NCBI GenBank assembly: GCA_049580985.1
Contig: JBAURA010000041.1
Location: forward strand, 1 to 33,329
Origin: Chloroflexia bacterium
GTDB taxonomy: Bacteria; Chloroflexota; Chloroflexia; QHBQ01; JADMIH01
Direction: 5' to 3'
DNA: 33,329 nt
A program made the translations under genes and the position numbers. This document shows positions 7,108 through 33,329 of this stretch, piece after piece. The stretch's first letter is position 1. Each line of letters opens with the position of its first letter. The notes under the pieces are model-generated. The model was given only the letters and a program-made list of their open reading frames with translations. It was not told the DNA's origin and did no database searches.

Positions 7108-7123
7108 CTCTTTGGACGTACAG

Positions 7124-8800: not shown

Positions 8801-8829
8801 TGAGAAAGAATAGCTAGAAGGTAAATGGA

Positions 8830-10998: not shown

Positions 10999-11003
10999 TC
11001 TGC

Positions 11004-11042
11004 AAAAAGAAAGCGCACCTACTGATGGTGCGCTTTCTTTTT
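11004..11042. terminator. Bidirectional rho-independent terminator between convergent genes
   Basis: Perfect 16-bp stem AAAAAGAAAGCGCACC (11004-11019) / GGTGCGCTTTCTTTTT (11027-11042) with a 7-nt loop. There is an A-tract on one side and a T-tract on the other. It lies 6 nt after the 10998 stop and 17 nt after the 11059 stop. Confidence 0.8.
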
Positions 11043-11058
11043 CATCTGCTCATGTCCG

Positions 11059-12483: not shown

Positions 12484-12706
12484 GAGTTATGTGTGTCCTT
12501 TTAATGCGATACATGCAAGCTTTTACGACGACTACAAGAGGCAACACATTGGCTGCCGCTCGTCGCGCCCTTAGTTTACCGGACCGGCAGTTGGCACGGC
12601 AATAGCAAAATGGTCCTTGAGCCGCCATTACGACGGTCATAGGACCAAAATACGATCTACTGCGTATTGTGCGTAGCTTGCCGCTACTGCATAAACTGTA
12701 GGTTAG

Positions 12707-13897: not shown

Positions 13898-13932
13898 CGC
13901 CTACCTGCCTGTCAACCGTGGGCTAGCTGTCC

Positions 13933-16074: not shown

Positions 16075-16111
16075 TCATGCTTTCACTTTGACCAACCAGA
16101 AGGAGGAGGAG

Positions 16112-18194: not shown

Positions 18195-18317
18195 TGGTAG
18201 AGTTCATGTCCAGCCCAAACAGCGAGGAAAGAACCAACTGCTTAAGGGATAAGTGAAAGGGAATAGCGAAGGGAGTCGCTATTGCGCGGCTCCAGTGGTC
18301 CAAAGGGAGGATCCACA

Positions 18318-20204
18318 ATGGTTACCACCATCAACCGGCGCGTATCGCTGGCGCGCTACTTATTGCTTATGCTGGCCCTGGTGGCTGTGCCGTTCCCGCC
18401 CACCGCCGGGATAGCTGCTTCGCCTGCTACGCCGGGCTGCATAGCCTCTCCGCCCAATGTGACCGGTATCTATAAAGAGGTCTGCGGCCGCTTCGCCGAT
18501 TACTGGAACTCGAAGGGCGGATTGGCCCAGCAAGGCTATCCACTTACGCCTGAAATGACCGAAATCAGCCAGGAGGACGGTAAGCCCTATCTGGTGCAGT
18601 ACTTCGAGCGGGCGGTGTTCGAATACCACCCTGAGCAGGAGGACCCCGACTACGAGGTGTTGCTCAGCCGGCTCGGCTACTCCTTTTACCGCATAAAATA
18701 CCCATCTGGCGCGCCCGATCAGCACGCCAACTCCGGTCCTGATTCGAGATACTTCGAAGCTACCGGCAAGTGGCTGGGTGGCCCATTCCTGCAATACTGG
18801 AACGATAATGGTGACCTGGCTCAGCAGGGGATGCCGATCTCCGACGAGTTCCAGGAAAAGAGCGCCTCCGACGGCCAAGTCTACACCGTCCAGTACTTCG
18901 AGCGCGCGGTGTTCGAGTACCATTCCGAGCTTACGACGACCAACAAGGTGCTTCTCCAACTCCTCGGCGTGTTCCGTTTGTACAGTGCCCTCGTCCAACC
19001 CTACTCGGGTTATCAGGGTTGGATTTGCCACCCTCGGCATCTGCACGAATACTCGAATTGCCTTCAAGGACAGTTGGGGGGGCCAGATCCAGAAAGTATG
19101 CCGAGCGAAGTAGCGGAAGGAGGGCCGTCGCCAACAGCCAGCCTGGCTCAACCAGACGATATCCTCCTTGCTAACGCCGACAACCCCCTCCCTGTGCGCT
19201 ACGCGACAAGTAGCCTGACGCTGATGAATGCGACAAAACTCGGTCTCTGGCAGAGCTCCCCATGCACTGCCTCGCACGGCGTCACTCTGCTTATGGGTGA
19301 TCCCGAGGACCTCAAGGTCTTTGCAAACCCGGCGGAGGTCGTGGTGAATGATGGGTCTATACCTCTGGAGGTCCAGGTCGGTAATGTCTGCGTCCACCCC
19401 CTGGGCACTTTTTACGGTGTGCGTCTGTGGCCTGACGGGAGCGCCGATGTAGCCGTCAAAAGCGGCGACCAGGGCGCTTTGGTTATCGTGCCACCGGGCC
19501 GCAGGACCAGGGTGTTACCCGGACAGCAAGTCCATGCCTCTCCGGCCGGGGTGGTCGTCGCAGTAGGATCGATCGATGCAGAGTTCGAAAAGTCCTTCGC
19601 TAGCCATAACGACCCTAGTCGCCCAGTTAGCCCCCCACCGTCCGATCCACCACAACCGCCCGGCTGGGCGTCCAGCCTGCTGAGCAACGGCGATTTCGAG
19701 ACCGGCACCCTGGCTACCTGGACCTCGCAAATCAACGGCGGCAGCGCCTTTATCGCCACTCGCCCACGACGGGCCGGGACCTATTCCGCCAGGATTACGA
19801 GCGTCGCCAAGGCCGGCGCGAACAGCGGCGTTGCTGGGGGAGGCACCTGCCCTGGCGGCAATCGCGTGCCGGTGGTACCCTCCACTTCCTATTCCTGGTC
19901 AGGCTGGGTCTTCATCCCAGAGTCGGACGCGCAACCCGGCGCCAGGTTATTAATCAACTGGTATAGTGCCTGCTCTGGTGGAAGCCATGTCGCTGTCTCC
20001 GGTACCTCTATAGCCCAGGCCACCGGCCAGTGGCTTCAGATCACCGGCCAAGCGTTCGCGCCTCCTAACGCCACACACGCGGCATTCATCATGGAGATCA
20101 CATCCGCGAACAACGCCGAGGGCAGCGCCTACTTCGACGACCTTCAGTTGAACGTCGTAGGTGTCCTTACACCGACCCATTTGTCCCCACTGTACCTGCG
20201 GTAA
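18318..20204 (+). CDS. Secreted protein: signal peptide, 2 LGFP-like repeats (QYFERAVFEYH), Cys-containing middle region, CBM4_9-like jelly-roll. Truncated paralog of 20561-23113.
   Basis: ATG 18318 follows RBS AAAGGGAGG and matches the start of the paralog (MVTTINRRVSLARYLLL...). The repeats read GGLAQQGYPLTPEM...GKPYLVQYFERAVFEYHPE and GDLAQQGMPISDEF...GQVYTVQYFERAVFEYHSE. The C-terminus NGDFETGTLATWTS...AYFDDLQLN is CBM4_9-like. Confidence 0.8.
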   Translation: MVTTINRRVSLARYLLLMLALVAVPFPPTAGIAASPATPGCIASPPNVTGIYKEVCGRFADYWNSKGGLAQQGYPLTPEMTEISQEDGKPYLVQYFERAVFEYHPEQEDPDYEVLLSRLGYSFYRIKYPSGAPDQHANSGPDSRYFEATGKWLGGPFLQYWNDNGDLAQQGMPISDEFQEKSASDGQVYTVQYFERAVFEYHSELTTTNKVLLQLLGVFRLYSALVQPYSGYQGWICHPRHLHEYSNCLQGQLGGPDPESMPSEVAEGGPSPTASLAQPDDILLANADNPLPVRYATSSLTLMNATKLGLWQSSPCTASHGVTLLMGDPEDLKVFANPAEVVVNDGSIPLEVQVGNVCVHPLGTFYGVRLWPDGSADVAVKSGDQGALVIVPPGRRTRVLPGQQVHASPAGVVVAVGSIDAEFEKSFASHNDPSRPVSPPPSDPPQPPGWASSLLSNGDFETGTLATWTSQINGGSAFIATRPRRAGTYSARITSVAKAGANSGVAGGGTCPGGNRVPVVPSTSYSWSGWVFIPESDAQPGARLLINWYSACSGGSHVAVSGTSIAQATGQWLQITGQAFAPPNATHAAFIMEITSANNAEGSAYFDDLQLNVVGVLTPTHLSPLYLR

Positions 20205-20560: not shown

Positions 20561-23113
20561 ATGGTTACCACTATCAACCGGCGCGTATCGCTGGCGCGCT
20601 ACTTACTGCTTGTGCTGGCCCTGGTGGCTGTGCCCTTCCCCTCCACGGCCGGGATGGCCTCTCCGCTTGCTCAGCAGGGCTGCGTACCTTTCCCAGCGAA
20701 TTTGACCGGTATTTATAAACGGCTGTGCGGACGCTTTGCCAATTACTGGAACCTGCATGGCGGACTCGCCCAGCAAGGCTATCCACTTACGCCTGAAGTC
20801 ATGGAAGTCAACCAGCAGGACGGCAAAATATACACAGTACAATACTTCGAGCGGGCTGTCTTTGAGTACCATCCCGAGTTCCGAGGCACTACCAATGAGG
20901 TGCTTCTATCGTTGCTCGGCGCCTCTTTTTATCGCAGTAGATACCCAAATGGCGCGCCGGGGCAGCGGCCCAACTCTGGCGCTGGTTCCATGTACTTCGA
21001 AAAGACCGAAAAGTGGTTGGGTGGTCGATTCCTGGAATACTGGCGGGCCAACGGTAGCCTGGCTCAACAGGGGATGCCGATCTCCGACGAGTTCCAGGAA
21101 AAGAGCGCCACCGACGGCAGGCCCTATACAGTCCAATACTTCGAGCGCGCGGTGTTCGAGTACCACCCCGGAAATGCGCGGCCCAACGATGTGCTTCTTA
21201 GCCTGCTTGGTGTGTCGCGCCTGCGCACTGCCCTCATCCAGCCCTACGACGGTTATGCGGGTTGGATTTGCCACCCCCCCCAACGGCACGAACACTCGAA
21301 TTGCCGCCAGAACCTGGGGGCTACGAATCCCTCGCCAACTATGCCGCACGACGTAGCGGTGGGCGGGCCGCCGCCCTGGGCTACCCTCGCTCAACCGGAC
21401 GATGTCATCCTTGCTAACGCCGGCAACATCCTCCCCGTGCGCTACGCGGCGCGTAGTCTGACGTTGGGCAAAGCGACGAAACTGGGCCTCTGGCCGAGCT
21501 ACCCATGCACCCAGCCGGAAAGTGTCACTCTGCTTATCGATAATCCCAATAAGGACAAGGATAGAACGGTCGTGACAAATCCGGGGGTAGTCGTGGTGAA
21601 CGACGGGATTTTACCTCTGGAGGTCGCGGCAGGCGCTACCTGCACCCAGCCCCAAGGCACTCTTTACGGCGTGCGTCTGTGGCCCGATGGCAGCGTCGAC
21701 GTGGCGGTCAAAAGCGGCGCCGAGGGCGCATTAGTGATTGGGCCAGCAGGCAGCACCAAGGTGCCGCCCACAAAGCAAGTTCATGCCTCCCCTGCGGGGG
21801 TGGTCGGCTTGCCGGGACCGATCGACGCAGAGTTCGAGAAGGACTTCGCTCGCCATAGCGACCCTAGCCTCCCACCTAGCACCCCAATACCTGATCCCCC
21901 TCGTCCGCCCGGCTGGGCATCCAGCCTGGTATTCAATGGCGATTTCGAGAACGGCACCCTGGCGTCCTGGACCACGCCAATCGGCGGCGGCAGCGCGTCC
22001 ATCGCCACTAGCCCTCGACGGGCCGGGACTTATTCCGCCAGAGTTACAAGTGCCCCCAAGGAGCGTCTGGGCAGCGGCGTTGCTGGAGGTGGCACCTGCC
22101 CCGGCGGCAACCGCGTGCCGGTGGTACCTAACGCTCACTATCAGTTGTCAGGCTGGGTCTTCATCCCAGAGTCGGACGCGCAACCCACCGCCAGGCTATT
22201 ACTCTACTGGTATAATACCTGCTCTGTTGGAGCCCCTGTTTCTCAATCCGGTTTCCGTTTTCTCCAAACCACCGGCCAATGGCTTCAACTCGGCAGCGGA
22301 GGGTCCGTGCCCAATAACGCCACATACGCGACCCTCAACATGGAGGTGGTGCCCGCCAACAACGCCGTAGCCAGTGCCTACTTCGATGACATTCAGTTGA
22401 ACGTCGCGGATGCCCCTGTTGCGACCGCTACCCCCACCGTACCTGTGGTAACATACCCGCTAGCCGAAGGATTCGAGTCTGGATACGGAAACTTCAGATC
22501 GAACGTCGCGGGTACTCCTGTACCGACCCCTGTCCCCACCGTACCACCCGTAGCCACGCCAAGGCCACCCGGCTGGGCCAGAACGACAAATAATGGCGCG
22601 GGCTGGACCGCTCACAGCGGCAATTGGGCAATATTTGCTCCCGATAAAGATAATAGCGCCAATCAGATCCTGTCGACTATCAGCCCCATCGCTATCCCGG
22701 CTAACGCGAATAGTGCCGTGCTGGACTTCTGGCATCGTTATGATTTGGGCCTCACAGGTTATCCGTATCCGGCACCGAGCGCCGGGGTGCTGGAAACTTC
22801 CACTGATGGAGGTATATCCTGGCGAGATGTGTTGTCAACTACATCCTTCATAGCAAACGGCTACAACGGCTCTACAGGGCCTAACGCGCGCGCCGGCGGC
22901 CAAATGCTTGGCGACAATCGCGCGAGTTGGATAGGTGATACCGGGGGTAGATATACGAAAGTCCAGGTCAACTTGCTGCCCTTCGCCGGGAGGAATCTCC
23001 TGTTCCGCTTCAACCTCGGTACTGGGGGTGAAGCTGGTTACTCTGGGTGCTGCACACCACATATCGGCTGGCAAATTGACGACATCTTAGTGACGATTAC
23101 TTCACGTCCGTAG
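20561..23113 (+). CDS. Secreted protein, full-length paralog: signal peptide, 2 LGFP-like repeats, middle region, CBM4_9-like domain, Pro/Thr linkers, and a C-terminal choice-of-anchor-J/MAM-like jelly-roll
   Basis: The first ~90 nt are more than 90% identical to 18318 onward, and the domain order is the same. The extra C-terminus reads GWARTTNNGAGWTAHSGNWAIFAP...AVLDFWHRYDL...GVLETSTDGGISWRDV...LLFRFNLG...GWQIDDILV. Confidence 0.8.
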   Translation: MVTTINRRVSLARYLLLVLALVAVPFPSTAGMASPLAQQGCVPFPANLTGIYKRLCGRFANYWNLHGGLAQQGYPLTPEVMEVNQQDGKIYTVQYFERAVFEYHPEFRGTTNEVLLSLLGASFYRSRYPNGAPGQRPNSGAGSMYFEKTEKWLGGRFLEYWRANGSLAQQGMPISDEFQEKSATDGRPYTVQYFERAVFEYHPGNARPNDVLLSLLGVSRLRTALIQPYDGYAGWICHPPQRHEHSNCRQNLGATNPSPTMPHDVAVGGPPPWATLAQPDDVILANAGNILPVRYAARSLTLGKATKLGLWPSYPCTQPESVTLLIDNPNKDKDRTVVTNPGVVVVNDGILPLEVAAGATCTQPQGTLYGVRLWPDGSVDVAVKSGAEGALVIGPAGSTKVPPTKQVHASPAGVVGLPGPIDAEFEKDFARHSDPSLPPSTPIPDPPRPPGWASSLVFNGDFENGTLASWTTPIGGGSASIATSPRRAGTYSARVTSAPKERLGSGVAGGGTCPGGNRVPVVPNAHYQLSGWVFIPESDAQPTARLLLYWYNTCSVGAPVSQSGFRFLQTTGQWLQLGSGGSVPNNATYATLNMEVVPANNAVASAYFDDIQLNVADAPVATATPTVPVVTYPLAEGFESGYGNFRSNVAGTPVPTPVPTVPPVATPRPPGWARTTNNGAGWTAHSGNWAIFAPDKDNSANQILSTISPIAIPANANSAVLDFWHRYDLGLTGYPYPAPSAGVLETSTDGGISWRDVLSTTSFIANGYNGSTGPNARAGGQMLGDNRASWIGDTGGRYTKVQVNLLPFAGRNLLFRFNLGTGGEAGYSGCCTPHIGWQIDDILVTITSRP

Positions 23114-24490
23114 AACCAATACCAACCCTACTGCATTGAGTATAGCCAGCCAAAGTATGGGTACAGCGAACGCCAACGTTTGAAAACGACGGGGCGCCAG
23201 GGCTGCCAGACCGCCGAGCATGCATAAGGCTATGGGCAACAGTACGGGGAAGAGAAAACGAGTATGTGGGTGAAAGGAAATGATGGTATTGTACTGAAGA
23301 AAACCCAGGAGCAAAGTCCCGGTGCTTGCGGCCATCGCCACCCCGATCTGCACAGTATACACAGCGATGGTTCGCTCCCACATGCGCCTGGCGGCCCCCA
23401 CCACCGCTATGCCTGTCAAGGCAATGAGAACCATGCCTAGCACGTTGCTGAGCCTATAATATTCGCCGGGTAGCTGAATGGTCGTCCACCCGAAGGTTCC
23501 CCAGAAGTTTTGCACAGTCCAGGTCAGGAACAGGTTGGCGTTGCCAAAGTACTGGAAGTCAATTGGATTGAAATGCCCCCGTGAAAAACGGAGAAGATCG
23601 AGGCTGCCGGTCGGCTCCCCATAGATAAGGGCATTTCGCGCCAACCACCAACCACAGACAGCCAGGGCTGCGCCGGCCACACTTAGCCCCAGTGGCGGAA
23701 TCTGCCGGAGCCATTGCCGCAACCCCCTCCCGGACCCTACTACTCCCTGGCGCGAGCGAAACAGCACGACAAAGACCAAACCAGGGAGCAAGGCTAAGGC
23801 ACTCAATTTCGCCAGTATGGCTAACCCGAACAGAGCGCCCGCGCGCAACAACCACGGATCATAGCGAGGTTCGCGCAGCCCACGGCACCAGACATAGAAA
23901 CTGGCAGCGCTCAACCAGTTGATAGTGCTGTCGTTTGAGGCCGCGGCACTATCGCAGCAGAACTGGGGCAACAGCGCGACAAACCCGCCAACAGCTAATG
24001 CCAGGCGGGGGGAGCAAGGGGCTAATTGACGGGTTGTCGCCCAGCAGTAATAAACGGCCAACGCTCCAAATAAAGCGGCGACACCGCGCCCAGCATAGAG
24101 CACCGCCGCTGGATCGGCAGGGACTATCCGCGCCACTAGTCCCGCGACTATGTAGTATAGCGGAGGTTGCCTCCCTTCGTAAGGCCAGAGAAGTAGCGGG
24201 GGGCGGCTGTAGCCGAGGTGAATAGCATAGTCCCGGGCGGCATCATCTACGGGCGTATTAGCGACAATGCCAGCCGGGTCCTGGTCGAAGCGAAAGTGGA
24301 CCTCGGGCAGGATATGCTGATTGCGTACTTGCAGGATCGCCTGTAGATGAGCCGGCTCGTCTACGGCGTTGAGTGGCTTTACTGCTACCGCCCAGCCAAT
24401 GTTCAGTCCCAGGCTTATCAACAGTAACACTACCCCAGGCGACACGCCTTGATACCGCATGGCCGGCCTGTGTAAGCCAATGGCAATCAT
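23102..24490 (-). CDS. DUF2142-like polytopic membrane protein (putative GT-C type glycosyltransferase)
   Basis: About 11 hydrophobic segments. The first-loop motif AVDEPAHLQAI and PPLYYIVAGLVARIV are typical of DUF2142. RBS GGAGGG lies in the 27-nt gap after the WD40 gene stop. The 3' end overlaps the convergent gene by 12 nt (23102-23113). Confidence 0.65.
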   Translation of the reverse strand: MIAIGLHRPAMRYQGVSPGVVLLLISLGLNIGWAVAVKPLNAVDEPAHLQAILQVRNQHILPEVHFRFDQDPAGIVANTPVDDAARDYAIHLGYSRPPLLLWPYEGRQPPLYYIVAGLVARIVPADPAAVLYAGRGVAALFGALAVYYCWATTRQLAPCSPRLALAVGGFVALLPQFCCDSAAASNDSTINWLSAASFYVWCRGLREPRYDPWLLRAGALFGLAILAKLSALALLPGLVFVVLFRSRQGVVGSGRGLRQWLRQIPPLGLSVAGAALAVCGWWLARNALIYGEPTGSLDLLRFSRGHFNPIDFQYFGNANLFLTWTVQNFWGTFGWTTIQLPGEYYRLSNVLGMVLIALTGIAVVGAARRMWERTIAVYTVQIGVAMAASTGTLLLGFLQYNTIISFHPHTRFLFPVLLPIALCMLGGLAALAPRRFQTLAFAVPILWLAILNAVGLVLVLRT

Positions 24491-24517: not shown

Positions 24518-27500
24518 CTACGGAGTATCGAGCGGCAGGTTGGAGCAGGTTGCGCGACGCGGCAGGCCTTTGGGCAAATACTGCTCCCACTCGAGAGCAG
24601 TCAGGTTGCGGTTGGCGATGGCGCAGGCCCGTCTAACCCAAGAGTTGGGATCGACATCCAACAGCCGAAGCACAGCAGCACCACCGCCGCCCACAGCCAG
24701 CAGCCGTCCGTCAGGGCTGAAAGCCAAATCGTTTTCGGCCCCCGCCTGTTCCCAGAGCAAAGCGCCTGGTGATACCCCGCCGCGCGCAGGCCAAAGATGC
24801 ACACTGCCATCCTTGGAAGTCGAAGCGAGCGTGAAACCGTCAGGACTGAAGGCTAGGTCGGTAACTGGCCCCTGGTGGCCCTGGAGCGCCGGTCCAAGCG
24901 ACGTGAGCATGGGCCAGTCCCACAACCGGATGGTGCTGTCAGTGTAGCCGGTGGCCAGGGTGCGGCCGTCGGCGCTGAAGGCCAGGGCTGCAAGTTCGGT
25001 GCGCAGCTCGGGATAGGATGTCGGGGTGGCTAAAGGCCAGCTACTGGGCATTTCCCACAGGCGCAGCACGCCATTTGGGCAGCCAAACTGTGTGGGAGCG
25101 GAGCAACCACCAGCCGCCAGGACGCGACCATCCGCGCTAAATCGAAGCGCCGAGATCTGTGCCTGTGCGTCCAGCGTCCGTGTCGGCCCAGATGTGGCAT
25201 TGATATCCCAGAGGTCAATCCGACTGCCGAGGGCTACGGCAAGCGTATGGCCGTCCGCGCTGAAGGCCAGGCGCGGCCGTAACTCGCTTGCGCTGCCCGC
25301 CGTAAGCACGAGCGGCTTCTCCCAGGGCTGGCTCCACAACAGTAGTTCTCCGTCGAGCCCGACCGACGCGAGCGTGTCGTCCAACGGACTGAAAGCCAGT
25401 TCACTCACCCCCGCCTGATGGCCCCGTAGCGGCTCCCTATGCGCGGTACCGGCCGGCAGATCCCAAAGGCGAATCAGGCCGTCGGCCCCGCCAGAGGCAA
25501 GCATACTTCCGTCGCGCGTCACCGAGGTGCTGGTCACCACGCCCTCCGGGACCGGCAAAATAGCCGTGGTAGGCCAACTCGATCCTAAGTCCCACAAGCG
25601 AACGTCCGCTAGTTCATCGGTCGCGCCCTTGGCCTCTTTTCCAAAGCCGGCGCTGGCCAGTGTGCGTCCGTCGACGGCCATCGCCAGTGCGTTGATGATG
25701 CCGGTGTGCCCGGTCAGGATGTATACCGGCCGTCCCTCCCTAATGTTCCAGGCATGGATAGTCTGCCCCGCCCCCGCCCAAAACAGGGTCTGGCCGTCTG
25801 GACTGAAGGCCAGCGCGTTTATCATCCCTTCAGAGCCATTTATGATCTGCGGCTCGCTGCCGGTCGTCTCCACGTCTCTGCCGGTCGCGTTCACGTCCCA
25901 CAGGAGCACCATACCATCATCGCCTGCGGCTGCAATCTGGTCGCCTTGCGGACTGAAAGCGACGGCACGCAGAGGATTATTTACTCCCCTTCCACCCAAC
26001 GGTGGCGTGATCTCTTGGCGTGTGTCGAGATCCCATCGGCGTACCAGACCATCACTGCCCACGGAGAAGACAACAGAGCCTTTTGCCCTGGGCGAGAATA
26101 CGATGGCCAGTGCTGCGCCAATGTGACCGCCGGGCAGCGGACCAAGTGGGATGTGTGCCACAGGATCCCAAAGCCGAATCGTGCCCTCTCTCCCTGTCGA
26201 GACCAGAATCTTGCCCCCAGGCGCAAAGGCCACAGCGGTCACGTCGTCCGTATGCCCATCCAACTCCAGTAGTTGTAGCGGGCTACTGACGACCCACACC
26301 CGCACCTTGTTATCCCAGCTGCCGGACGCGAGCATGCCGCTGTCCGGGCTGAAAGCAAGCCCGGTTACCGGCTGGCCGTCATGGCCCACCAGCGACCGAA
26401 GGAGCCGGTGGGTTTGCGTGTCCCATAGCCAGATCGCGCCGTCATCGCCGGCACTCGCCACGGTGCGGCCATCCGGGCTAAAGGCAACGGCATAGGCCCA
26501 GCGCGGCTCGCCCCAGAGAAAGCTCGCGAGACGAGCGCTCTGGGTCAGCCCACTATAAAGGCTGGCGCGCGCCTCGACCGTATCTGTGAAGGCATGTGAC
26601 TCCACACTCAGCAAGAGAGATAGGTCGAGTCGGTCATTTAGCCGACCCGACGCTCCCAACGCCAGCGCCCGGGAGACAGCCAGGTCAGCCTCGATAGCTG
26701 CACGAGTGCTTTCGGCAACCGCCAGTGCGCGCTGCTGGTCCGCGCGATTTCCTTCGGCCACCGCCGTCGCGCGCTGTTGGTCGGCCAGTTGGGCGTTGGC
26801 GTCTGCTCGCAGCTTCTCGGCCACCGCCGCCTGCTCACTCGCTACAGCCGTCTTACTGCTCGCTACGGCCTCCTCCTTCGCGATCCTGGCGTCGTTCCAG
26901 AAGAACAACACCACCACTAACGCGGTGAACAAGATGGCAAAGAGCGCAACCGTCACCAGCAACCGGCGGCGACGGGCGGCCGCGGCCTCAGAAGAGGCAC
27001 GAAGAAACTCGCGCTCAACCTGGCGTAACTCTGCTGGGTCTCTACGCGCCTGCCGCTCAGCCTCACGCAATTCTGCACCGAGCAGCAACAGGCTCTGCGG
27101 CCGGCCTGTACTGGCCCACTCCGGCGCGCGCCTCTGCAGCGGCCTCAGCGTCTCGCGCCAGCGCTTATTGTCCTCCCACACCGGCTTGATCATGCTGTCG
27201 TGGGCGAGTTCGAACCAGGTCGTGCCATGCCGGTCGTCACGGCGGATCAAGTGTGTATCTACCAGCGCCTCTATGGCAGCGAGTGGCAATGCCTGCTCGC
27301 CTTTCAGTTCGAGCGGCACCTGGCCCCTGGTGTCTTCCGACGTGATCAGTCGCTCGAACCAGTCTCGGATGCGCCTCGGCGACACCTTGCATGTGTCGGC
27401 GACCTCGGTTATGCTCTCCGCATAGTATTCGGTTAGTGCCTGACTCACATAGTCGCCGTTGCTTATCAGATCCTCACCCATCTGTTGCGCGCCTACTGGC

Positions 27501-28468
27501 CGATGATTCCAGATTCGACGGCAGACAACCTGTAGCACCACCGGCTCGATAGGCCCTCGCCCGCTCGGCTTGATGCCATCGGGCTCTTGTACTATCACTG
27601 TTCCCAGGTCCTCGACCAAGCGATTAACCGCGGGTTCGGTAAAGGGCACACCGGCGATCCTGGCCGGTTCGCGGATCGCCTGAGCGGCGGCGTTCGGCCC
27701 GAGTTGCGCCAGGCGGTACGTGGAGTTTAGGTATCCAGGCAGCAGATCCCTGTACGGATCGAGCTGGCCCAGGTAGTCCTCTCGGATGGAGAATAGCACC
27801 CAGCGGTTGCGGCTGCCCAGTACGACGCCAAGCTGCTCAAAGAAATCGCGCTTGGCGTCAACATCCAGCGGCTCGACCGTCAGCACGTCTTCGAACTGAT
27901 CGAATATCCAGACGACGCCGGCTGGCGCGTCCCGATTAATTCGGGCACGGGATTGCTCCGTTTCGGGTTCTTCGCCCTCGAAGGTCTGGCGCTCGCCATA
28001 ACGGAGCTTCACATAAGATGGTAGTGTAAGCTCGGCCAGTTCGGCGGGCGTGAAGGCCTCCTTCTCTTGCGCCTGCTCCAGCGAGGCAAGGAGTTTGAGC
28101 ACGAAGGAATTGGCTTTATGGCTGACCGCTAAGTATTCGACAGGCAATTCGGCGCCAAAACGGGCGATCCGTACTACGTCAAAGCGTGGCCGCCATATAG
28201 CCTGTGCCTCCTGATCCTGGCTCGGCTGACCCACCTGCCGCCCCTCCAACCTGGGGATCAACCCGGCCTGGATAAGCGAGCTCTTGCCCGCGCCCGACGG
28301 AGAGTGGAGCAGCGTGATACGCTCGGCGACCAGCAGGTTGTAAAGCTCACGCAGTTCGCGATCGCGACCGTAGATGCCGTTCTCCTCGCTTAAGGCGAGC
28401 GGGCCTGGGTAAGGCTCATACCGGGCCACGTCTACGTCAATGCCAGATGCATCAGCCATTTGTGGCAC
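24518..28468 (-). CDS. STAND-type P-loop NTPase (nSTAND-like), single TM helix, Ala/Gln-rich coiled coil, 14 WD40 repeats
   Basis: YGRDRELRELYNLLVAERITLLHSPSGAGKSSLIQAGLIPRL (Walker A), VVWIFDQFEDVL (Walker B, hhhhDQFE), LFSIREDY, winged-helix-like LIRRDDRHGTTWFELAHDSMIKPW, and TM LLVTVALFAILFTALVVVLFFW. These are followed by 14 units of the type VAFSPDG.TLAS...D..I.LWD and the tail ACAIANRNLTALEWEQYLP. The start is GTG 28468 or ATG 28459, and both overlap the upstream stop (28452-28454). Confidence 0.9.
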   Translation of the reverse strand: MPQMADASGIDVDVARYEPYPGPLALSEENGIYGRDRELRELYNLLVAERITLLHSPSGAGKSSLIQAGLIPRLEGRQVGQPSQDQEAQAIWRPRFDVVRIARFGAELPVEYLAVSHKANSFVLKLLASLEQAQEKEAFTPAELAELTLPSYVKLRYGERQTFEGEEPETEQSRARINRDAPAGVVWIFDQFEDVLTVEPLDVDAKRDFFEQLGVVLGSRNRWVLFSIREDYLGQLDPYRDLLPGYLNSTYRLAQLGPNAAAQAIREPARIAGVPFTEPAVNRLVEDLGTVIVQEPDGIKPSGRGPIEPVVLQVVCRRIWNHRPVGAQQMGEDLISNGDYVSQALTEYYAESITEVADTCKVSPRRIRDWFERLITSEDTRGQVPLELKGEQALPLAAIEALVDTHLIRRDDRHGTTWFELAHDSMIKPVWEDNKRWRETLRPLQRRAPEWASTGRPQSLLLLGAELREAERQARRDPAELRQVEREFLRASSEAAAARRRRLLVTVALFAILFTALVVVLFFWNDARIAKEEAVASSKTAVASEQAAVAEKLRADANAQLADQQRATAVAEGNRADQQRALAVAESTRAAIEADLAVSRALALGASGRLNDRLDLSLLLSVESHAFTDTVEARASLYSGLTQSARLASFLWGEPRWAYAVAFSPDGRTVASAGDDGAIWLWDTQTHRLLRSLVGHDGQPVTGLAFSPDSGMLASGSWDNKVRVWVVSSPLQLLELDGHTDDVTAVAFAPGGKILVSTGREGTIRLWDPVAHIPLGPLPGGHIGAALAIVFSPRAKGSVVFSVGSDGLVRRWDLDTRQEITPPLGGRGVNNPLRAVAFSPQGDQIAAAGDDGMVLLWDVNATGRDVETTGSEPQIINGSEGMINALAFSPDGQTLFWAGAGQTIHAWNIREGRPVYILTGHTGIINALAMAVDGRTLASAGFGKEAKGATDELADVRLWDLGSSWPTTAILPVPEGVVTSTSVTRDGSMLASGGADGLIRLWDLPAGTAHREPLRGHQAGVSELAFSPLDDTLASVGLDGELLLWSQPWEKPLVLTAGSASELRPRLAFSADGHTLAVALGSRIDLWDINATSGPTRTLDAQAQISALRFSADGRVLAAGGCSAPTQFGCPNGVLRLWEMPSSWPLATPTSYPELRTELAALAFSADGRTLATGYTDSTIRLWDWPMLTSLGPALQGHQGPVTDLAFSPDGFTLASTSKDGSVHLWPARGGVSPGALLWEQAGAENDLAFSPDGRLLAVGGGGAAVLRLLDVDPNSWVRRACAIANRNLTALEWEQYLPKGLPRRATCSNLPLDTP
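24656..26506 (-). repeat. 14 tandem WD40 blades (enough for two 7-bladed beta-propellers)
   Basis: Counted by eye from WAYAVAFSPDGRTVASAGDDGAIWLWD to ENDLAFSPDGRLLAVGGGGAAVLRLLD. Each unit is about 40-50 aa. Confidence 0.85.
26897..26962 (-). other. Single predicted transmembrane helix between the NTPase and WD40 modules
   Basis: LLVTVALFAILFTALVVVLFFW is 22 uncharged hydrophobic residues. It is preceded by AAARRRR and followed by NDARIAKEE. Confidence 0.75.
28280..28303 (-). other. Walker A / P-loop (SPSGAGKS)
   Basis: The reverse complement of gctcttgcccgcgcccgacggaga reads tct ccg tcg ggc gcg ggc aag agc. Confidence 0.9.
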
Positions 28469-30572
28469 TTCGCTCGGCAGCCTGCTTCGCCTCCCAGCGC
28501 TCTCGCAACTCTTCGGTGAAGTCGTCTACTCGGCCCCAATATATACTTATTCTCTCGCCTTTGAAGTAGCTCTTAAGGTAATTGCGTGCGCCTCGCGGAT
28601 TAGCGTACGCACCCTCCTCAGGGTCAATTTGCGCCGCCACATGATTGTATAGCTTCATCAGGCCCCCCTTTTGTCCGGTCACCAGGAAGCGGAACAGCGT
28701 CCGGAAATCCCAGTCCTCTTGTTTGAAGCCTAGGAAGAGCAAGGCGTTCTGTAAGAAGGCCTCCAAAACCACATCTGGGATGCGCTTTTTGTTGCTGGTG
28801 ATACCGACCAAATAGTCGAAGTAATCATCCTCTTGGATCACTAGTGAGAGTGGCACCTTGATGTGGCCGAATAGATGATAGACAAGCGGATTGTGTTTAT
28901 CGGGCACGTAATCTCGGTCTATCTGCCATAGATCTTTGGGCCAATCGAGGTCGTTCCAGCGACAGATCTTTAGCGTCGGTTTTTTCCCCGCGTCTTGCAA
29001 CGCGTCAAATAGCATCGTGTCAGGGTTGGTGGTCACATAGACCTTGAAGGGCAGGCTGGCTAGTACCGCATGCGGTTCGATACGGCGCGCGGCAGCCGGT
29101 TCATTGGCATGGGAAGAGCGCAGGTAGCTGCCGGCGGATTTCACTACCTCCGCCACGTCTTTGCGGTCAATGTTCGGAGGAAGAAAGTGGCCAAACCGGT
29201 CGAGTAGTTCCATACGTACATGGTTGATCAACTCGCGCTTCGGTGTGATCTGTTGCTCGCTGGCTGCCAGGTACTGCGCGACCTGGGGCAGATCGTCCAT
29301 GTCGCCAGGCGACATGGGGTAGCCATACCGCTCGGCCCACCTCTGCGCCAGTGCCCAGGTGGGCCCGATCAGCTCTTCCAGCATGCCCGACCCGAGGATC
29401 GGCGTGCATTGTCCATAATCAATATTCTCTAGCACCGAGTCCCAGCCTCGAAAGTCGTTATCGCCGCCCAGGACGAATCCGGGTGAGAACCAGATTCGCC
29501 CTTCCTGCAGGCGTGAGAAGAGAGTAGGCATCCAGAAATCCCGATTCTTGCTCACGAAACCTCGAGCTGCGGTCACCGCCCTGTCAATCTGGCCGTGCCG
29601 TTTCAGTTCGCTAAAGAATACAGGCATGAAGCTAGTCACGGTGCGCATGCTGACATTGCCCTGCATACCGAGTACCGCCGCCACCCCCGCCTCCGCCAGT
29701 TGAGGCCCCAACGACGCAAGAGCACCGTCATCACGGCTGGTGTCCATCGCAGCGCTCTGACACGAGCCCAGTACCATCAACAATGGGCGATTCGTCAGGC
29801 CGCGTATGCGGGTGACGAGCGTTCCACCCGACGCGGGCGCTGCCTTACCCGCACCATCCTCCAGCAAAATCACCGGCTCTTTATTCTTGAAGCCGCCATG
29901 TGCGACCAGATAAACGATGTCGTAGCCCTTACCCAGTTCTTCCACCAGGTGCTCCAGGGTAACGCTTCGAGCCGGCATTGCCTCAACCCGTAATCCAGCC
30001 AGGGCCTCCATAGCGCGGTCACGTTCGCCTTGCTCGTCAATTGTGACGGGGGAGCCGCCATCGAACGAGAATTCGCCCTCTGCCAAAGTTGGGTTGGCAA
30101 TGGCAATCAGCGCCTTCAGGTCGTTGCGTGTGTGTAGTCGCAGGCGTCGCCGGTCGGCGCTACTACTTAGGAAGCGCGAAAAGGGGACATTCTGATCGGT
30201 GGTCAGTGGTTCTCCATTTTCAGGGTCACACAACATCTCCCATAAAAGGTCATGGAGTCGCGGGGTGCCGGGCCAGATGAAGAGGCGCAAGTGTAACAGA
30301 ACCGGGTTGCCCGGTACGCGTTCTGCCTCCTCGCGGGCCCTGCGATACCGGCTGAGCACATTGGCATCGGCGAACAGATACTGGCCCAGCAGCATGCCGT
30401 ACGCCTTTGGGTTGGTCTTCGCTCCCAGCAGTTTCTCGAAATCGAAGGTTACTACACCTCTTACCGGAACCTGGAAGGTTTGGTCGTTCGATATGCTGAA
30501 ACGCAGCTCGACGGCATAGCTGTTCTTCTCAAGGTGGTGGAGCCCGATCTCAAGATCGGCGGAAACATCCAT
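28452..30572 (-). CDS. CHAT (caspase-like clan CD) protease fused to a C-terminal SIR2-like (SIR2_2 type) domain
   Basis: 706 aa. See the two domain features. The N-terminus MDVSADLEIGLHHLEKNSYAVELRFS is typical of CHAT proteins. The stop overlaps the start of the STAND NTPase gene. Confidence 0.85.
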   Translation of the reverse strand: MDVSADLEIGLHHLEKNSYAVELRFSISNDQTFQVPVRGVVTFDFEKLLGAKTNPKAYGMLLGQYLFADANVLSRYRRAREEAERVPGNPVLLHLRLFIWPGTPRLHDLLWEMLCDPENGEPLTTDQNVPFSRFLSSSADRRRLRLHTRNDLKALIAIANPTLAEGEFSFDGGSPVTIDEQGERDRAMEALAGLRVEAMPARSVTLEHLVEELGKGYDIVYLVAHGGFKNKEPVILLEDGAGKAAPASGGTLVTRIRGLTNRPLLMVLGSCQSAAMDTSRDDGALASLGPQLAEAGVAAVLGMQGNVSMRTVTSFMPVFFSELKRHGQIDRAVTAARGFVSKNRDFWMPTLFSRLQEGRIWFSPGFVLGGDNDFRGWDSVLENIDYGQCTPILGSGMLEELIGPTWALAQRWAERYGYPMSPGDMDDLPQVAQYLAASEQQITPKRELINHVRMELLDRFGHFLPPNIDRKDVAEVVKSAGSYLRSSHANEPAAARRIEPHAVLASLPFKVYVTTNPDTMLFDALQDAGKKPTLKICRWNDLDWPKDLWQIDRDYVPDKHNPLVYHLFGHIKVPLSLVIQEDDYFDYLVGITSNKKRIPDVVLEAFLQNALLFLGFKQEDWDFRTLFRFLVTGQKGGLMKLYNHVAAQIDPEEGAYANPRGARNYLKSYFKGERISIYWGRVDDFTEELRERWEAKQAAERSATNG
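28533..29420 (-). other. SIR2_2-like domain (approximate bounds, aa ~385-680)
   Basis: Ordered motifs: CTPILGSGML (GxG Rossmann start), KVYVTTNPDTMLFDAL (compare TTNYD), LVYHLFGHI (compare KLHG), LVIQEDDYFDYL, and NALLFLGFKQEDWDFRTLFR (compare LFLGYSLSD). Confidence 0.7.
29538..30290 (-). other. CHAT protease domain (approximate bounds, aa ~95-345) with a His/Cys dyad
   Basis: YDIVYLVAHGGF (His225 codon 29898-29900) and LLMVLGSCQSA (Cys271 codon 29760-29762), followed by AGVAAVLGMQGNVS. The order and spacing are typical of CHAT/caspase-fold enzymes. Confidence 0.8.
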
Positions 30573-30697
30573 GGTGCTTCCCTACATGAGCCGATGGTAA
30601 GGCGGCTCACATAGCACGCCACGCACAGTGGTCCCGTTAAGTTGCAGACCAGCCCACAGCGAGGCGATATTACGAAGGCTTCTCGACTCTTAGTATA

Positions 30698-30726
30698 ATT
30701 ATACAGTCGGAGAGTGCGCTGTGCAA
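30698..30726 (-). promoter_or_regulatory. Candidate sigma70-type promoter for the CHAT-SIR2 operon (TTGCAC - 17 nt - TATAAT)
   Basis: On the minus strand, -35 TTGCAC is at 30726-30721, the spacer is 17 nt, and -10 TATAAT is at 30703-30698. The -10 lies in the perfect palindrome GTATAATTATAC (30693-30704), about 125 nt upstream of the ATG. Confidence 0.4.
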
Positions 30727-31402
30727 GGGAGAGCATCAATACTCAAAGCATCATTTGGTGGGGCTAATCCTGCGTGTTCGATGCTACTTGTCTCATGCTA
30801 GATCGTGGAGTCTCATTCGCAAGCACAGCCTCTTGTAAGGTAGTATGGTCGTTCGTATGAGCCAAGAGAGCCATTCAGGGCGCCCTCTGTTAGCAACCTC
30901 ATAAAAGATGAGAGTACCCAACCCTGACAAGCCTTTTAGGATGTTTGGTCTAATATCGACCTGTCAGTACGGGAGCGGTATAGCCGTAGGTGTGCGCGTC
31001 GGGGTGTTGGTAGGGGTGTTGACGGCAGTGCTGGTCGGCCATCCGTAGTGCATGAGCTTTGTATGAATTCTTGTATGAGTTTCGTATACCGCAATGCAGC
31101 TTTAGGGCAGCCTGGCTGCTGTATACTTTCTTCACAAAACAAAGCGCAACTCGCAGGTACGTGCGTCCTCAACCCAGGTCTCTGGGCCCCAACACGCAAT
31201 CTTCTGGAGCAGTGGCACGCCGAGTGCTGTAGGGCGTAACTGGTTGCGTATTCTAATGTCATGGTAGTTTGCGACCTGGCGCAGTATTCTCCTCCCACAC
31301 GTCAGTGCTACCTGGGTAGTCCTCCACAACCGCGCATCCCTCTCACAACGCTCTTACCAAAGACAACGTTCGTCCCACTAATTCGGCAAGGAGGCCTCGT
31401 TC

Positions 31403-33329
31403 ATGTTTGCTCACGTCCAGTTTATGAGCGCCCACCGTTGGTTGAGCAGGAGCGGCATATTGGCGCTCGTAGCCATCTCTTTCGCTCTCGTTTTGGGCTG
31501 GTATGTGGTGGCGCAACTCACTCGCCAGCTCGCCATCCCTCCAATCAAAGCTAATGTCCCACTCAGCTTCGTGCCTGATGCCTGGCAATCGGGCACGAGC
31601 GCCAGGTATGTAGCGCATCTTCCGGGCGGCGCTCTCTCCTTTGACCAGGAGGGTGTAGCTCTGCAATTGCCGATTGCCGGAGGCGATACCGGCACCACGG
31701 AGCATCCTCAAGTTAAGCTGGGTATCGGTTTCATCGGTGCGAGCGGCACGGCTACGCTGGCTGGCGATAAGATTCAGCCAGGCACGGTCAACTACTTCAT
31801 CGGCGATGACCCCGACCAGTGGCGCACCGGGGTGCAGAGCTACGGGCGCGTCACCTACAAAGCTCTCTACCCCGGCATTGACCTGACCTACGAGGGTGGC
31901 AGCATGGAGGCGCGCGCAGGCGTGCCCCTGCTCAAAGGCACCTACACCGTCGCCCCAGGAGCCGACCCCTCCCTCATAGCCTGGCGCTATACCGGCGTGC
32001 AAAGCACAAGCCTGGATGCGTCCGATAATTTGCTGATAAGCGTTGAAGGGCCGGTGGCAGGCGGCGACAACGTAGCGCTCAGCGAGCTGGCTCCGGTCGC
32101 CTGGCAAAACGTTCGTGGGCAGCGCGTGCCCGTGCAAGTCCGCTATACACTGGCCGAGGACGGCGCGGTGCGCTTCGCTTTGGGCAGCTACGATCCGGCA
32201 CTCCCCCTCGTCATAGACCCTGTGCTCACCTACTCGACGTACCTGGGAGGCAACTTCGCCGAGAACGGCACCGGCATCGCCGTGGACCCCATGGGCAACT
32301 TCTACGTCACCGGCCACACCAACTCCTCCAACTTCCCCCGCGTCAACGCTCTCCAGAACAACTTCGGCGGTATCGAGGATGCGTTTGTCGCCAAGTTCAA
32401 CCGCGATGGGCAGCCCGTCTACATCACCTACCTGGGCGGCTCCCACTGGGACTTCGGACATGACATCGCCACCGACGCCGCGGGTAACGCCTACGTGACC
32501 GGTTATACCCTCTCGCAGAACTTCCCACTCGCGAATCCTTTCCAGCCAACCCTTGGTGGCAGCAACGACACATTCGTCGCCAAGCTCAATCCTTCCGGGT
32601 CGGCCCTCCTATACTCCACGTACCTGGGTGGTAATGACGATGATTACGGGCGTGGCATCACCGTTGACGCACAGGGCAACGTATACATAGCGGGGAGCAC
32701 CGATTCGACCAACTACCCCGTGAGCAACGCCTACCAACCGGCGAACGCGGGCAACTCCGACGCATTCGTAACCAAATTCAACCCCGCAGGCTCGGCACTG
32801 GTGTGGTCCACCTACCTGGGAGGCTCGAACAGCGACGCGGCGTTCAGCATAGCGGTAGACACGACGAACAATGTTGTCATCACGGGGCGCAGCTATTCCA
32901 CAAACTATCCCCTTCAGGCCGCCTACCAACCCTTTATGGCCGGTCTCCACGACGTGGTTGTGACCAAGCTGAACGCGGCAGGCTCGGGCCTCGTCTACTC
33001 CACCTATTTTGGCGGCACTAGCGACGAGGTCGGCAACGATATCGCCGTCGATCCGGCGGGCAGCGCCTACATTGTGGGCTATACAGGCTCGGCCGATTTC
33101 CCCGTGATCAACGCCTTCCAGGGGGTGGGTGGCTTCGGCGATGCGTTCGTCGCCAAGTTCACCCCCGTCGGTGTGCCCGCTTATTCCACATATCTTGGCG
33201 GCCCCTGGCCGGATGGCGGCGACAGTATCGCCGTCAACGCAGCCGGAGAGGCGTTCGTCATCGGAAGCACCCAGTCTGATAACTTCCCCCTGATGAACCC
33301 CATCTACCCCATTCTCCGAGGTAGCGAGG
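31403..33329 (+). CDS. Membrane-anchored SBBP beta-propeller repeat protein, 3'-truncated by the window edge (absent from the supplied ORF track)
   Basis: My own translation from ATG 31403 (RBS AAGGAGG 31388-31394) gives MFAHVQFMSAHRWLSRSGILALVAISFALVLGWYVVAQL (TM anchor). It continues ...VPLSFVPDAWQ...VNYFIGDDPDQWRTGVQSYGRVTYKALYPGIDLTYEG...YTVAPGADPSLIAWRYTG...PLVIDPVLTYSTYLGG. At least 6 repeats of the type YSTYLGG..D.G.GIAVD..GN.YV.G.T.S.NFP....Q......DAFV.K follow. The frame is open to nt 33329. Confidence 0.85.
   Translation, partial: MFAHVQFMSAHRWLSRSGILALVAISFALVLGWYVVAQLTRQLAIPPIKANVPLSFVPDAWQSGTSARYVAHLPGGALSFDQEGVALQLPIAGGDTGTTEHPQVKLGIGFIGASGTATLAGDKIQPGTVNYFIGDDPDQWRTGVQSYGRVTYKALYPGIDLTYEGGSMEARAGVPLLKGTYTVAPGADPSLIAWRYTGVQSTSLDASDNLLISVEGPVAGGDNVALSELAPVAWQNVRGQRVPVQVRYTLAEDGAVRFALGSYDPALPLVIDPVLTYSTYLGGNFAENGTGIAVDPMGNFYVTGHTNSSNFPRVNALQNNFGGIEDAFVAKFNRDGQPVYITYLGGSHWDFGHDIATDAAGNAYVTGYTLSQNFPLANPFQPTLGGSNDTFVAKLNPSGSALLYSTYLGGNDDDYGRGITVDAQGNVYIAGSTDSTNYPVSNAYQPANAGNSDAFVTKFNPAGSALVWSTYLGGSNSDAAFSIAVDTTNNVVITGRSYSTNYPLQAAYQPFMAGLHDVVVTKLNAAGSGLVYSTYFGGTSDEVGNDIAVDPAGSAYIVGYTGSADFPVINAFQGVGGFGDAFVAKFTPVGVPAYSTYLGGPWPDGGDSIAVNAAGEAFVIGSTQSDNFPLMNPIYPILRGSE

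Follow-up and report, generated by a model that had tools for sequence, protein, structure and literature searches.

An overlapping CHAT-SIR2-like and nSTAND1 gene pair

Two overlapping minus-strand genes of a Chloroflexia contig (JBAURA010000041.1), within the stretch of 33,329 nucleotides (nt) that we analysed and refer to as the window, encode a CHAT protease with a C-terminal SIR2-like domain and a candidate membrane-anchored receptor of the STAND nucleoside triphosphatase (NTPase) class. A third gene in the window encodes a gingipain-like peptidase whose relatives often accompany such pairs. Our statements about function draw on sequence, gene context and predicted structure. Gene 1 (28452–30572, identified as an open reading frame (ORF) with Pfam domains) encodes 706 amino acids (aa) and has GGGAAG ahead of its start ATG. 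Its CHAT domain, of caspase fold and clan CD, spans residues 96–340 (29553–30287; PF12770, 86 bits against a gathering cut-off of 24, E 4e-24), and the catalytic residues H225 (in H225-G226) and C271 are invariant in 201/201 family members. The SIR2-like Rossmann domain follows at about residues 385–700 (28473–29420), recognised both by Foldseek and by Pfam SIR2_2, which matches residues 511–652 (64 bits against a cut-off of 24.5, E 2e-17).

Gene 2 (24518–28459, by ORF and Pfam) combines an nSTAND1 NTPase, a transmembrane (TM) helix, a putative stalk and 14 WD40 blades in 1313 aa counted from ATG 28459, or 1316 aa from GTG 28468. The junction reads ...AAT GGC TGA with ATGGCTGA (28452–28459); the stop codon of gene 1 (28452–28454) falls inside the start of gene 2, giving an overlap of 8 nt for the ATG or 17 nt for the GTG, and this suggests translational coupling. 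A first-pass annotation of the same DNA had reported the 706-aa ORF, the stop codon inside the next gene and a set of motifs (VAHGG and GSCQS, containing H225 and C271, GSG, TTNPD, EDDY, LFLGF, SPSGAGKS and DQFE), all of which are present as described. Pfam profiles likewise bear out the domains it had named, with CHAT, SIR2_2 and nSTAND1 above their gathering cut-offs and WD40 at E 1e-86. The promoter that it placed before the pair exists as a TGCACA-16 nt-TATAAT site (30698–30725, minus strand), 126 nt 5' of the gene 1 start and matching 10/12 consensus positions; however, promoter-like sites in the region are no more common than in shuffled sequence (4 versus 2.1 +/- 1.4), so the site is only a plausible promoter of the pair.

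Conservation of the pair and related architectures

Full-length homologues of the CHAT-SIR2-like protein number more than 534, at about 680–700 aa, and a survey of species representatives (one genome per species) returned 443 loci encoding a relative, 80 of which were fetched for linkage counts. In 71/80 loci, the CHAT-SIR2-like gene is followed on its own strand by an nSTAND1 gene, within about 200 nt in 66; the gap between the two genes is typically -4 to +13 nt, and a 4-nt ATGA overlap is common. The nine remaining loci include five that end at a contig edge, one with the receptor gene directly upstream, two with convergent genes about 4 kb apart, and L076, where no nSTAND1 gene occurs in the 8 kb visible. 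Hosts of the 443 loci are mostly Chloroflexota, with others among Actinomycetota, Planctomycetota, Acidobacteriota, Verrucomicrobiota, Gammaproteobacteria and Desulfobacterota, so that the two genes remain neighbours across phyla, as the first-pass annotation had expected of a true system. The closest relative of the window locus (L001, 79% identity) belongs to a Chloroflexia metagenome-assembled genome, and the window itself matches a stretch of a 1.13-Mb metagenome contig in ENA without any difference. No full-length CHAT-SIR2-like protein was found in the plasmids of PLSDB.

The same components also occur in other arrangements. In cyanobacteria (Calothrix, Desmonostoc and Nostoc), a CHAT domain 27–31% identical to that of the family is fused into a CHAT-nSTAND1-TM-WD40 protein that has no SIR2-like domain, and L085 and L086 carry tandem CHAT-nSTAND1-WD40 paralogues. 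Based on these fusions, CHAT is the putative effector of this receptor family. An effector encoded apart from its sensor, which the first-pass annotation had singled out as unusual, is thus what the window contains but only one of the arrangements in the family. In Nostoc (L081, 10776–13036), a CHAT-nSTAND1 gene ends early, after 531 aa, and is followed in another frame by a remnant of the WD40 region and C-terminal cap; it appears to be a decayed copy of a fused receptor.

On plasmid pB of Ensifer adhaerens (L090, 5908–10886), the gene immediately upstream of one for an nSTAND1 beta-propeller protein encodes a stand-alone SIR2 protein (318 aa, 31% identical). This SIR2 protein keeps TTNYD and YHFHG, with the catalytic His intact, and its neighbouring receptor has the same RRR-TM arrangement. 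A Peptidase_C14-PG_binding-C-type lectin protein is encoded 3 kb upstream of these two genes (L090, 1064–2860), in a stretch unannotated in PLSDB.

Receptor domains and predicted topology

The nSTAND1 module (27101–28414; Walker A SPSGAGKS, Walker B IFDQFED) matches PF20703 at 123 bits against a cut-off of 27.1 (E 3e-35), with residues 19–456 covering profile positions 1–376 of 379. The STAND motifs recognised in the first-pass annotation are intact here, and both Walker motifs are invariant in 68–69 of 69 nSTAND1 homologues.

The single TM helix, LLVTVALFAILFTALVVVLFFW (26897–26962), has RRRR just before it and a mean Kyte-Doolittle hydropathy of 3.05. In 59 of 62 receptor homologues of at least 600 aa, an equivalent segment of 20–25 residues with mean hydropathy 2.0–3.3 occupies the same position; it is position and hydrophobicity that are conserved among homologues, not sequence, as expected for a lipid-facing helix. 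Within the 15 residues flanking the segment, Lys plus Arg average 5.5 on the NTPase (N-terminal) side versus 2.3 on the WD40 side. An NTPase of this kind requires cytoplasmic nucleoside triphosphate (NTP). Since only one TM segment is present and the charge bias follows the positive-inside rule, the stalk and propellers should be extracytoplasmic, and the WD40 sensor is probably outside the cytoplasmic membrane.

Beyond the helix, an Ala/Gln/Glu-rich linker read from the translation (26549–26896) presumably forms a helical stalk. It leads into fourteen WD40 repeats (24644–26542), enough for two seven-bladed propellers; the blades were counted in the translation, and the region matches many beta-propeller families in Pfam. 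The receptor, with one TM helix and 14 WD40 repeats and predicted to span the membrane, is as the first-pass annotation had drawn it. Strongly alike blades, as in fungal nucleotide-binding leucine-rich repeat (NLR) proteins, were considered and rejected, there being no tandem repeat at the DNA level.

At the C terminus lies a two-cysteine cap motif, C-x5-RNLT-x2-EW-x14-TC (24545–24625), found in its strict form in 14 of 51 long homologues; two-Cys variants were seen by eye, uncounted, in several further homologue tails. The four post-TM cysteines of the window receptor form two close pairs. Longer homologues continue past the WD40 region with Pro/Thr-rich linkers and then domains of 150–300 aa with conserved cysteines (L003, L004, L008, L011, L019, L028, L031, L034, L037, L059, L067 and L079), and on such C-terminal tails Pfam gave a weak SH3_3 match and, in L043, an FHA domain, and nothing else. 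The linkers, extra domains and cap motif lend weak support to an extracytoplasmic WD40 side. An external STAND sensor would not be unprecedented as an idea, since TM segments have been noted, though not studied, in the C-terminal regions of some bacterial NACHT proteins (bioRxiv 10.1101/2022.07.19.500537) and periplasmic sensor domains have been noted for some STAND-type targets of diversity-generating retroelements (PMC10907252).

The SIR2-like domain

Sequence matches to the SIR2-like domain among solved structures are SeThsA, BcThsA and KomC. A Foldseek search with an AlphaFold2 model of the CHAT-SIR2-like protein also ranked ThsA (3e-11), KomC (2e-10), DSR2 (1e-7) and the SPARSA Sir2 protein at the top (E 3e-11 to 1e-6). 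In all three printed alignments (SeThsA, BcThsA and KomC), the catalytic His of the xHG motif is replaced by F568 (VYHLFGH). The same His has been replaced in deposited structures of DSR2 (H171A) and KomC (H146N), and in the KomBC alignment pair the deposited mutant chain differs exactly at the catalytic Asn and this His, with Ala at both. The F568 column holds Phe in 185, Tyr in 12, Leu in 4 and His in none of 201 family members. When the domain alone was searched against 1.84 billion cluster representatives, 916 clusters (50% identity) matched at E 1e-30 or better, and all 149 representatives examined among the top 150 listed have Phe or Tyr at this position. The catalytic Asn of TxNxD is present in the window protein as N516 (TTN516PD) and kept in 140/201 members, the Asp next to it in 120/201, and the window domain further keeps the GxG motif (GSG) and D582. 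From these comparisons, the SIR2 fold is real and the canonical catalytic residue is lost across the family.

The domain is conserved along its length, with many invariant columns across residues 389–689, and such strong conservation implies that it is functional and selected for some role other than canonical catalysis. Most likely, it is a docking or regulatory pseudo-enzyme module directed towards the NTPase and not a hydrolase of nicotinamide adenine dinucleotide (NAD+). A tie to the NTPase rather than to catalysis is indicated by a protein that joins SIR2-like, nSTAND1 and WD40 domains in a single chain (P0325), by the Ensifer SIR2/nSTAND1 pair and by the cyanobacterial CHAT-nSTAND1 fusions that do without the SIR2-like domain. 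The simplest history, as we infer it, is that an active SIR2 effector was paired with the receptor, CHAT was added in front, and the catalytic His was then lost while the domain was retained as an NTPase-contact or regulatory module.

Two further proteins combine the SIR2-like domain with a TIR domain: P0265, where TIR is inserted to give CHAT-TIR-SIR2-like, and P0301, which reads TIR-(unassigned)-SIR2-like. In view of the TIR-inserted variant P0265, the SIR2-like domain may bind an NAD-derived ligand.

A C25/gingipain-like third gene

Clustering of all ORFs flanking the pair in the 80 loci yielded only one further recurrent neighbour, a family of C25/gingipain-like cysteine peptidases of clan CD. 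Of the 54 loci whose sequence extends far enough to be informative, 33 have a homologue no more than 8 kb from the pair: directly downstream of the receptor gene in 19, directly upstream of the CHAT-SIR2-like gene in 2 and elsewhere within that radius in 12. None was seen in the other 21. In the reverse direction, 6/6 C25-like homologues looked up adjoin CHAT and nSTAND1 genes, split or fused. The two-gene system of the first-pass annotation was hence right in its conserved pair but overlooked a frequent third member.

In the window, the C25-like gene (gene 3; 16088–17647, plus strand), assigned from synteny in relatives and from AlphaFold2 and Foldseek, encodes 519 aa from TTG 16088 or 511 aa from ATG 16112, the likely start. 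It lies on the strand opposite to the pair, 7 kb away, as does its counterpart in L001 at 2.2 kb. Its putative dyad, H297-G298 and C358, is invariant among homologues. Porphyromonas gingipains are secreted and have a signal peptide and a type IX secretion C-terminal domain; in the window protein, no hydrophobic N-terminal segment was seen when the translation was read by eye. The gene family usually appears to belong to the system, and in this genome the link is suggested by synteny in relatives.

The window protein has no Pfam match at default thresholds; against PF01364 (Peptidase_C25), it scores 14.5 bits (E 0.022), below the cut-off of 23. The same profile matches 26/27 C25-like homologues at E 0.01 or better, with a best value of 5e-9, and relatives are named 'C25 family cysteine peptidase' or 'gingipain domain-containing protein' in their source records. 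Searches of PDB sequences with the C25-like protein, as a single sequence and as a profile, returned nothing, and the fold was recognised only through an AlphaFold2 model (predicted local distance difference test (pLDDT) 84, predicted template modelling score (pTM) 0.88) followed by Foldseek, which matched gingipain K (Kgp; 6i9a, E 9e-9; 4rbm, E 6e-8) over about 465 columns.

Roughly half of the C25-like homologues are longer, at about 650–700 aa, and extend through a low-complexity linker into a conserved domain of about 130 aa at the C terminus (DGDT...VP...LW..H...AQ..R.E), which the window copy does not have (alignment A2, columns about 600–867). In cyanobacterial loci, the C25-like gene is preceded by a gene for a protein of about 455–474 aa with no Pfam match (L081, 7417–8820; L085, 7535–8902; L086, 7555–8958; L089, 6608–8032). 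The L081 copy, the one that was read, contains GHSFG, a serine-hydrolase-like motif. A relative of this protein is encoded just downstream of the C25-like gene in L030 (13359–14657), and none was found in the window.

Genomic neighbourhood

A polysaccharide biosynthesis cluster occupies positions 1–15720 of the window. Besides several glycosyltransferases of families GT2 and GT4, it encodes two flippases (Polysacc_synt), a protein in which GT2 is fused to a polysaccharide deacetylase, and a PMT-like membrane protein that carries an F5/8 type C domain at its C terminus. One GT4 glycosyltransferase, at 13933–15720 (minus strand; 595 aa), ends in a GAF domain, which suggests ligand-regulated glycosyl transfer. 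Between the C25-like gene and the STAND pair lie genes for two large proteins with weak, sub-threshold CBM_4_9 matches only (18282–20204 and 20561–23113, both plus strand). A GT-C-type membrane glycosyltransferase with PMT_2/DUF2142 assignments (23102–24490, minus strand) starts 27 nt past the stop codon of the STAND gene and shares its strand; across the 80 related loci, it does not recur as a neighbour.

Divergent from the CHAT-SIR2-like gene, and running off the end of the window, is the start of a gene for a 1716-aa surface protein (about 31403–33329, plus strand; DUF7948, SBBP repeats and a faint SLH match, according to gene calls on the source contig). Minus-strand ORFs at 30936–31298, 31343–32461 and 32609–32950 were discarded as upstream neighbours and treated as spurious, as they have no Pfam match and lie opposite this long SLH/SBBP gene. 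Outside the two or three genes of the system, neighbouring genes are not conserved across the 80 loci.

A predicted outside-in signalling module

We modestly favour the view that these genes of a filamentous Chloroflexia bacterium encode an NLR-like STAND module for signalling that is anchored in the membrane and comprises three proteins: the receptor, a cytoplasmic CHAT protease with a pseudo-SIR2 domain, and the C25-like peptidase. An outside-in STAND switch is the best-supported reading because the Walker motifs are invariant, the two clan CD peptidases have invariant dyads and the repeat sensor is predicted to be external. A ligand would bind the external WD40 domain and the signal would pass through the membrane, whereupon the nSTAND1 modules would oligomerise in the cytoplasm in an NTP-dependent manner. 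CHAT, held via the SIR2-like domain, would be activated by induced proximity and would cleave its substrates; the C25-like peptidase may be one of these and act as a second protease, the executioner. The outcome would be cell death, growth arrest or another irreversible response; abortive infection, programmed death within filaments and non-lethal signalling may all be candidates. The comparisons show the domain identities, the conserved catalytic dyads and NTPase motifs, the lost SIR2 His, the conserved TM helix and the gene linkage, whereas membrane topology, oligomerisation as the activating event, the sequence in which the two proteases act and the biological outcome are inferred. Processing of PCaspase by SAVED-CHAT in type III-B CRISPR, as summarised in a preprint (bioRxiv 10.1101/2024.10.24.620036), is a precedent for a cascade from CHAT to a second protease. 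The NLR-like conflict or cell-death frame of the first-pass annotation remains the best one, given that its domains, coupling and neighbour conservation hold and no defence model matches.

Several observations weigh against this three-protein module. The AlphaFold2 model of the CHAT-SIR2-like protein is of moderate confidence (pLDDT 67), and a domain that retains N516 and GxG could, strictly speaking, still consume NAD+ in some unconventional way despite the loss of the His. The topology is predicted solely from hydropathy and charge bias, and in one receptor homologue (L043, 742 aa; 4733 and upstream) the TM helix is followed not by WD40 repeats but by an FHA domain, a type normally found in the cytoplasm. 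The C25-like gene of the window is 7 kb off on the opposite strand with unrelated genes between, and the family may be accessory rather than obligatory, since it is missing within 8 kb in 21/54 informative loci. Finally, the pair sits in a polysaccharide and cell-surface gene cluster, not in a defence island.

This last context would suit a different role, in which the proteins form an outside-in signalling device of filamentous bacteria rather than an immune or suicide system: the WD40 domain would read an envelope, cell-cell or kin cue, and limited regulatory proteolysis would serve differentiation, filament fragmentation or envelope remodelling. An extracytoplasmic sensor fits poorly with sensing of phage proteins inside the cell, the surroundings include polysaccharide genes, the SLH surface-protein gene and, 27 nt beyond the STAND gene, the PMT-like glycosyltransferase, no full-length copy was found in the plasmid collection, and most hosts come from among filamentous Chloroflexia, Anaerolineae, cyanobacteria and actinomycetes. 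However, effectors are swapped within the family (SIR2 alone, CHAT-SIR2-like, CHAT-TIR-SIR2-like and fused CHAT), some genomes hold several paralogous copies (such as the L085 and L086 tandems), C-terminal domains vary, and the neighbourhood is not conserved beyond two to three genes. Swapping, tandem paralogy and variable C-terminal domains fit the conflict-system pattern of Kaur and colleagues (PMC7159879, PMC8195603), and we regard this alternative role as unlikely. Doubtful to a greater degree is the proposal that the hydrophobic segment is a peripheral tether or does not span the membrane at all, such that a cytoplasmic WD40 domain senses an intracellular (for example, phage) protein in the manner of Apaf-1, Avs and bNACHT. 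Characterised STAND sensors do work in the cytoplasm (PMC13581612), and both the FHA-bearing L043 homologue and the 3/62 homologues below the hydropathy threshold point the same way, whereas the length and hydropathy of the segment, its conservation in position and hydrophobicity but not sequence in 59/62 homologues, the Arg/Lys cluster on the NTPase side only, the same feature in cyanobacterial and Ensifer relatives, and the Pro/Thr-rich linkers and paired cysteines that follow it in homologues all argue for a membrane-spanning helix. We give the cytoplasmic arrangement very little credence.

The first-pass annotation had further combined two effector chemistries in one polypeptide, so that STAND activation would unleash proteolysis together with NAD+ depletion by SIR2, possibly after CHAT has cut the SIR2 domain off. 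The fold is indeed the defence-type fold of ThsA, DSR2 and KomC, PADLOC ThsA SIR2 models match it at 2.5e-11, and N516, the GxG motif and D582 are in place; moreover, the intact His of the stand-alone Ensifer SIR2 beside nSTAND1 suggests that an NADase was probably the ancestral effector of the receptor family. Nevertheless, we judge dual chemistry to be quite improbable because the SIR2 His is lost family-wide (Phe in the window protein and never His in the 201 members or the 149 top cluster representatives) while the CHAT dyad is invariant in 201/201. The inactivating mutants DSR2 H171A and KomC H146N and the doubly Ala-substituted KomBC chain all strike this residue, and the Asn and adjacent Asp are kept in only 70% (140/201) and 60% of members. 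With the catalytic His aligned to F568, release of an active SIR2 NADase by proteolysis is not supported.

An extension of the three-protein module that we hold as a tentative possibility only is a bacterial 'transmembrane NLR', a hybrid of death receptor and apoptosome. Its external WD40 domain would detect a threat or non-self cue (adsorbing phage, predators or foreign filaments), the pseudo-sirtuin would act as the adaptor, and CHAT followed by the gingipain-like enzyme would form the cascade.

Implications

To our knowledge, ligand sensing by characterised STAND/NLR receptors, whether bacterial, plant or animal, takes place inside the cell. If the predicted topology is true, a large and phylogenetically broad family that senses on the outer side of the membrane would widen the NLR principle to include outside-in signalling. 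The family would also offer a naturally evolved case in which a defence sirtuin became a non-catalytic module once a second effector (CHAT) had been gained, with the His-intact Ensifer relative for comparison, and a candidate bacterial two-protease cascade built from parts other than CRISPR SAVED-CHAT and PCaspase. These three features, the external sensor, the pseudo-sirtuin and the second protease, should be of interest to specialists. With 443 loci and 916 SIR2-like clusters, this is a widespread NLR-like system that is experimentally uncharacterised in the literature searched. For annotation, the pair is best treated as part of a system of three genes, without the assumption that NAD+ is depleted.

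Comparison with known systems

PADLOC returned only a domain-level ThsA match, confined to the SIR2 part, and a WD40-level match, with nothing for the NTPase or the C25-like protein, and NCBIfam gave nothing meaningful on the window proteins; the check for a known defence system that the first-pass annotation had suggested thus finds no PADLOC model that covers this one. A combination of CHAT-SIR2, nSTAND1-TM-WD40 and C25-like proteins was not found described in the literature searched, although absence there is no proof that it is undescribed. This agrees with the first-pass annotation, which knew of no characterised system with such an architecture; neither a description nor a test of one was found in that literature. 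The parts are known Pfam families, and the general kind, STAND conflict systems of multicellular bacteria whose effectors are caspase-like or target NAD+, has already been predicted; it is this architecture that is undescribed in the literature searched.

The nSTAND1 conflict systems of Kaur, Burroughs, Iyer and Aravind (PMC7159879, PMC8195603) share the NTPase clade (PF20703), the multicellular hosts and the logic of an NTP-dependent switch with superstructure-forming repeats and peptidase or NAD+-targeting effector domains. They differ in that effectors are coupled through effector-associated domains (EADs) or Death-like adaptor pairs, or by fusion (PMC7159879, PMC8195603), whereas no EAD is evident in the window receptor, where the nSTAND1 match begins at residue 19. 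No CHAT-SIR2 protein, TM helix between NTPase and WD40 or C25-like partner was found in the main text of either paper (PMC7159879, PMC8195603). In the two-gene EACC1-caspase system (Kaur 2020, system 4; PMC7159879), the 5' gene encodes a single-TM EACC1 domain; in the window, the gene 5' of the pair is the divergent one for the SLH surface protein. The cyanobacterial CHAT-nSTAND1-TM-WD40 loci share with the window the CHAT subfamily (27–31%), nSTAND1, the TM helix, WD40 and the C25-like family (about 52%). In these loci, however, CHAT is fused to the receptor N terminus, the SIR2-like domain is absent, the C25-like gene is upstream and preceded by the extra gene for about 460 aa (GHSFG), and receptor genes are often tandemly duplicated.

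Avs and bNACHT proteins have the same tripartite plan of effector, STAND NTPase and repeat sensor, and oligomerisation is assumed for both. Here, the NTPase belongs to another clade, with no PADLOC match in the NTPase region, the effector is on a separate chain and not fused at the N terminus as in Avs, and the sensor is WD40 and predicted to be extracellular, whereas that of Avs is TPR-like, lies in the cytoplasm and binds phage proteins. The Apaf-1 apoptosome resembles our model in that a caspase-fold protease is governed by a STAND NTPase bearing two WD40 propellers, and a second protease may follow. Apaf-1 is a soluble AP-ATPase (NB-ARC) that senses cytosolic cytochrome c and recruits its caspase through CARD-CARD contacts; the window receptor is of the nSTAND1 clade and predicted to be membrane-anchored, with the SIR2-like domain in the adaptor position.

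ThsA of Thoeris, DSR2, KomC and the SPARSA Sir2 protein have the same SIR2 fold and are the best sequence and structure matches; compared with these defence NADases, the family described here has the His replaced throughout, mostly by Phe, and the Asn only partly conserved. Thoeris needs a TIR-domain ThsB and a SLOG or Macro domain on the effector, and TIR, SLOG and Macro domains were absent from the two proteins and from the 19 other window ORFs scanned, as were HerA and prokaryotic Argonaute (pAgo) partners from the window ORFs scanned. CHAT or caspase-like proteases are immune effectors in other systems too, and in the CRISPR case CHAT activates a second clan CD protease, as summarised in a preprint (bioRxiv 10.1101/2024.10.24.620036). 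The triggers differ: those effectors respond to a cyclic nucleotide bound by SAVED or a C-terminal domain, whereas here a STAND NTPase would stand upstream, and the second protease is C25-like here and a caspase-like C14 enzyme in the CRISPR case.

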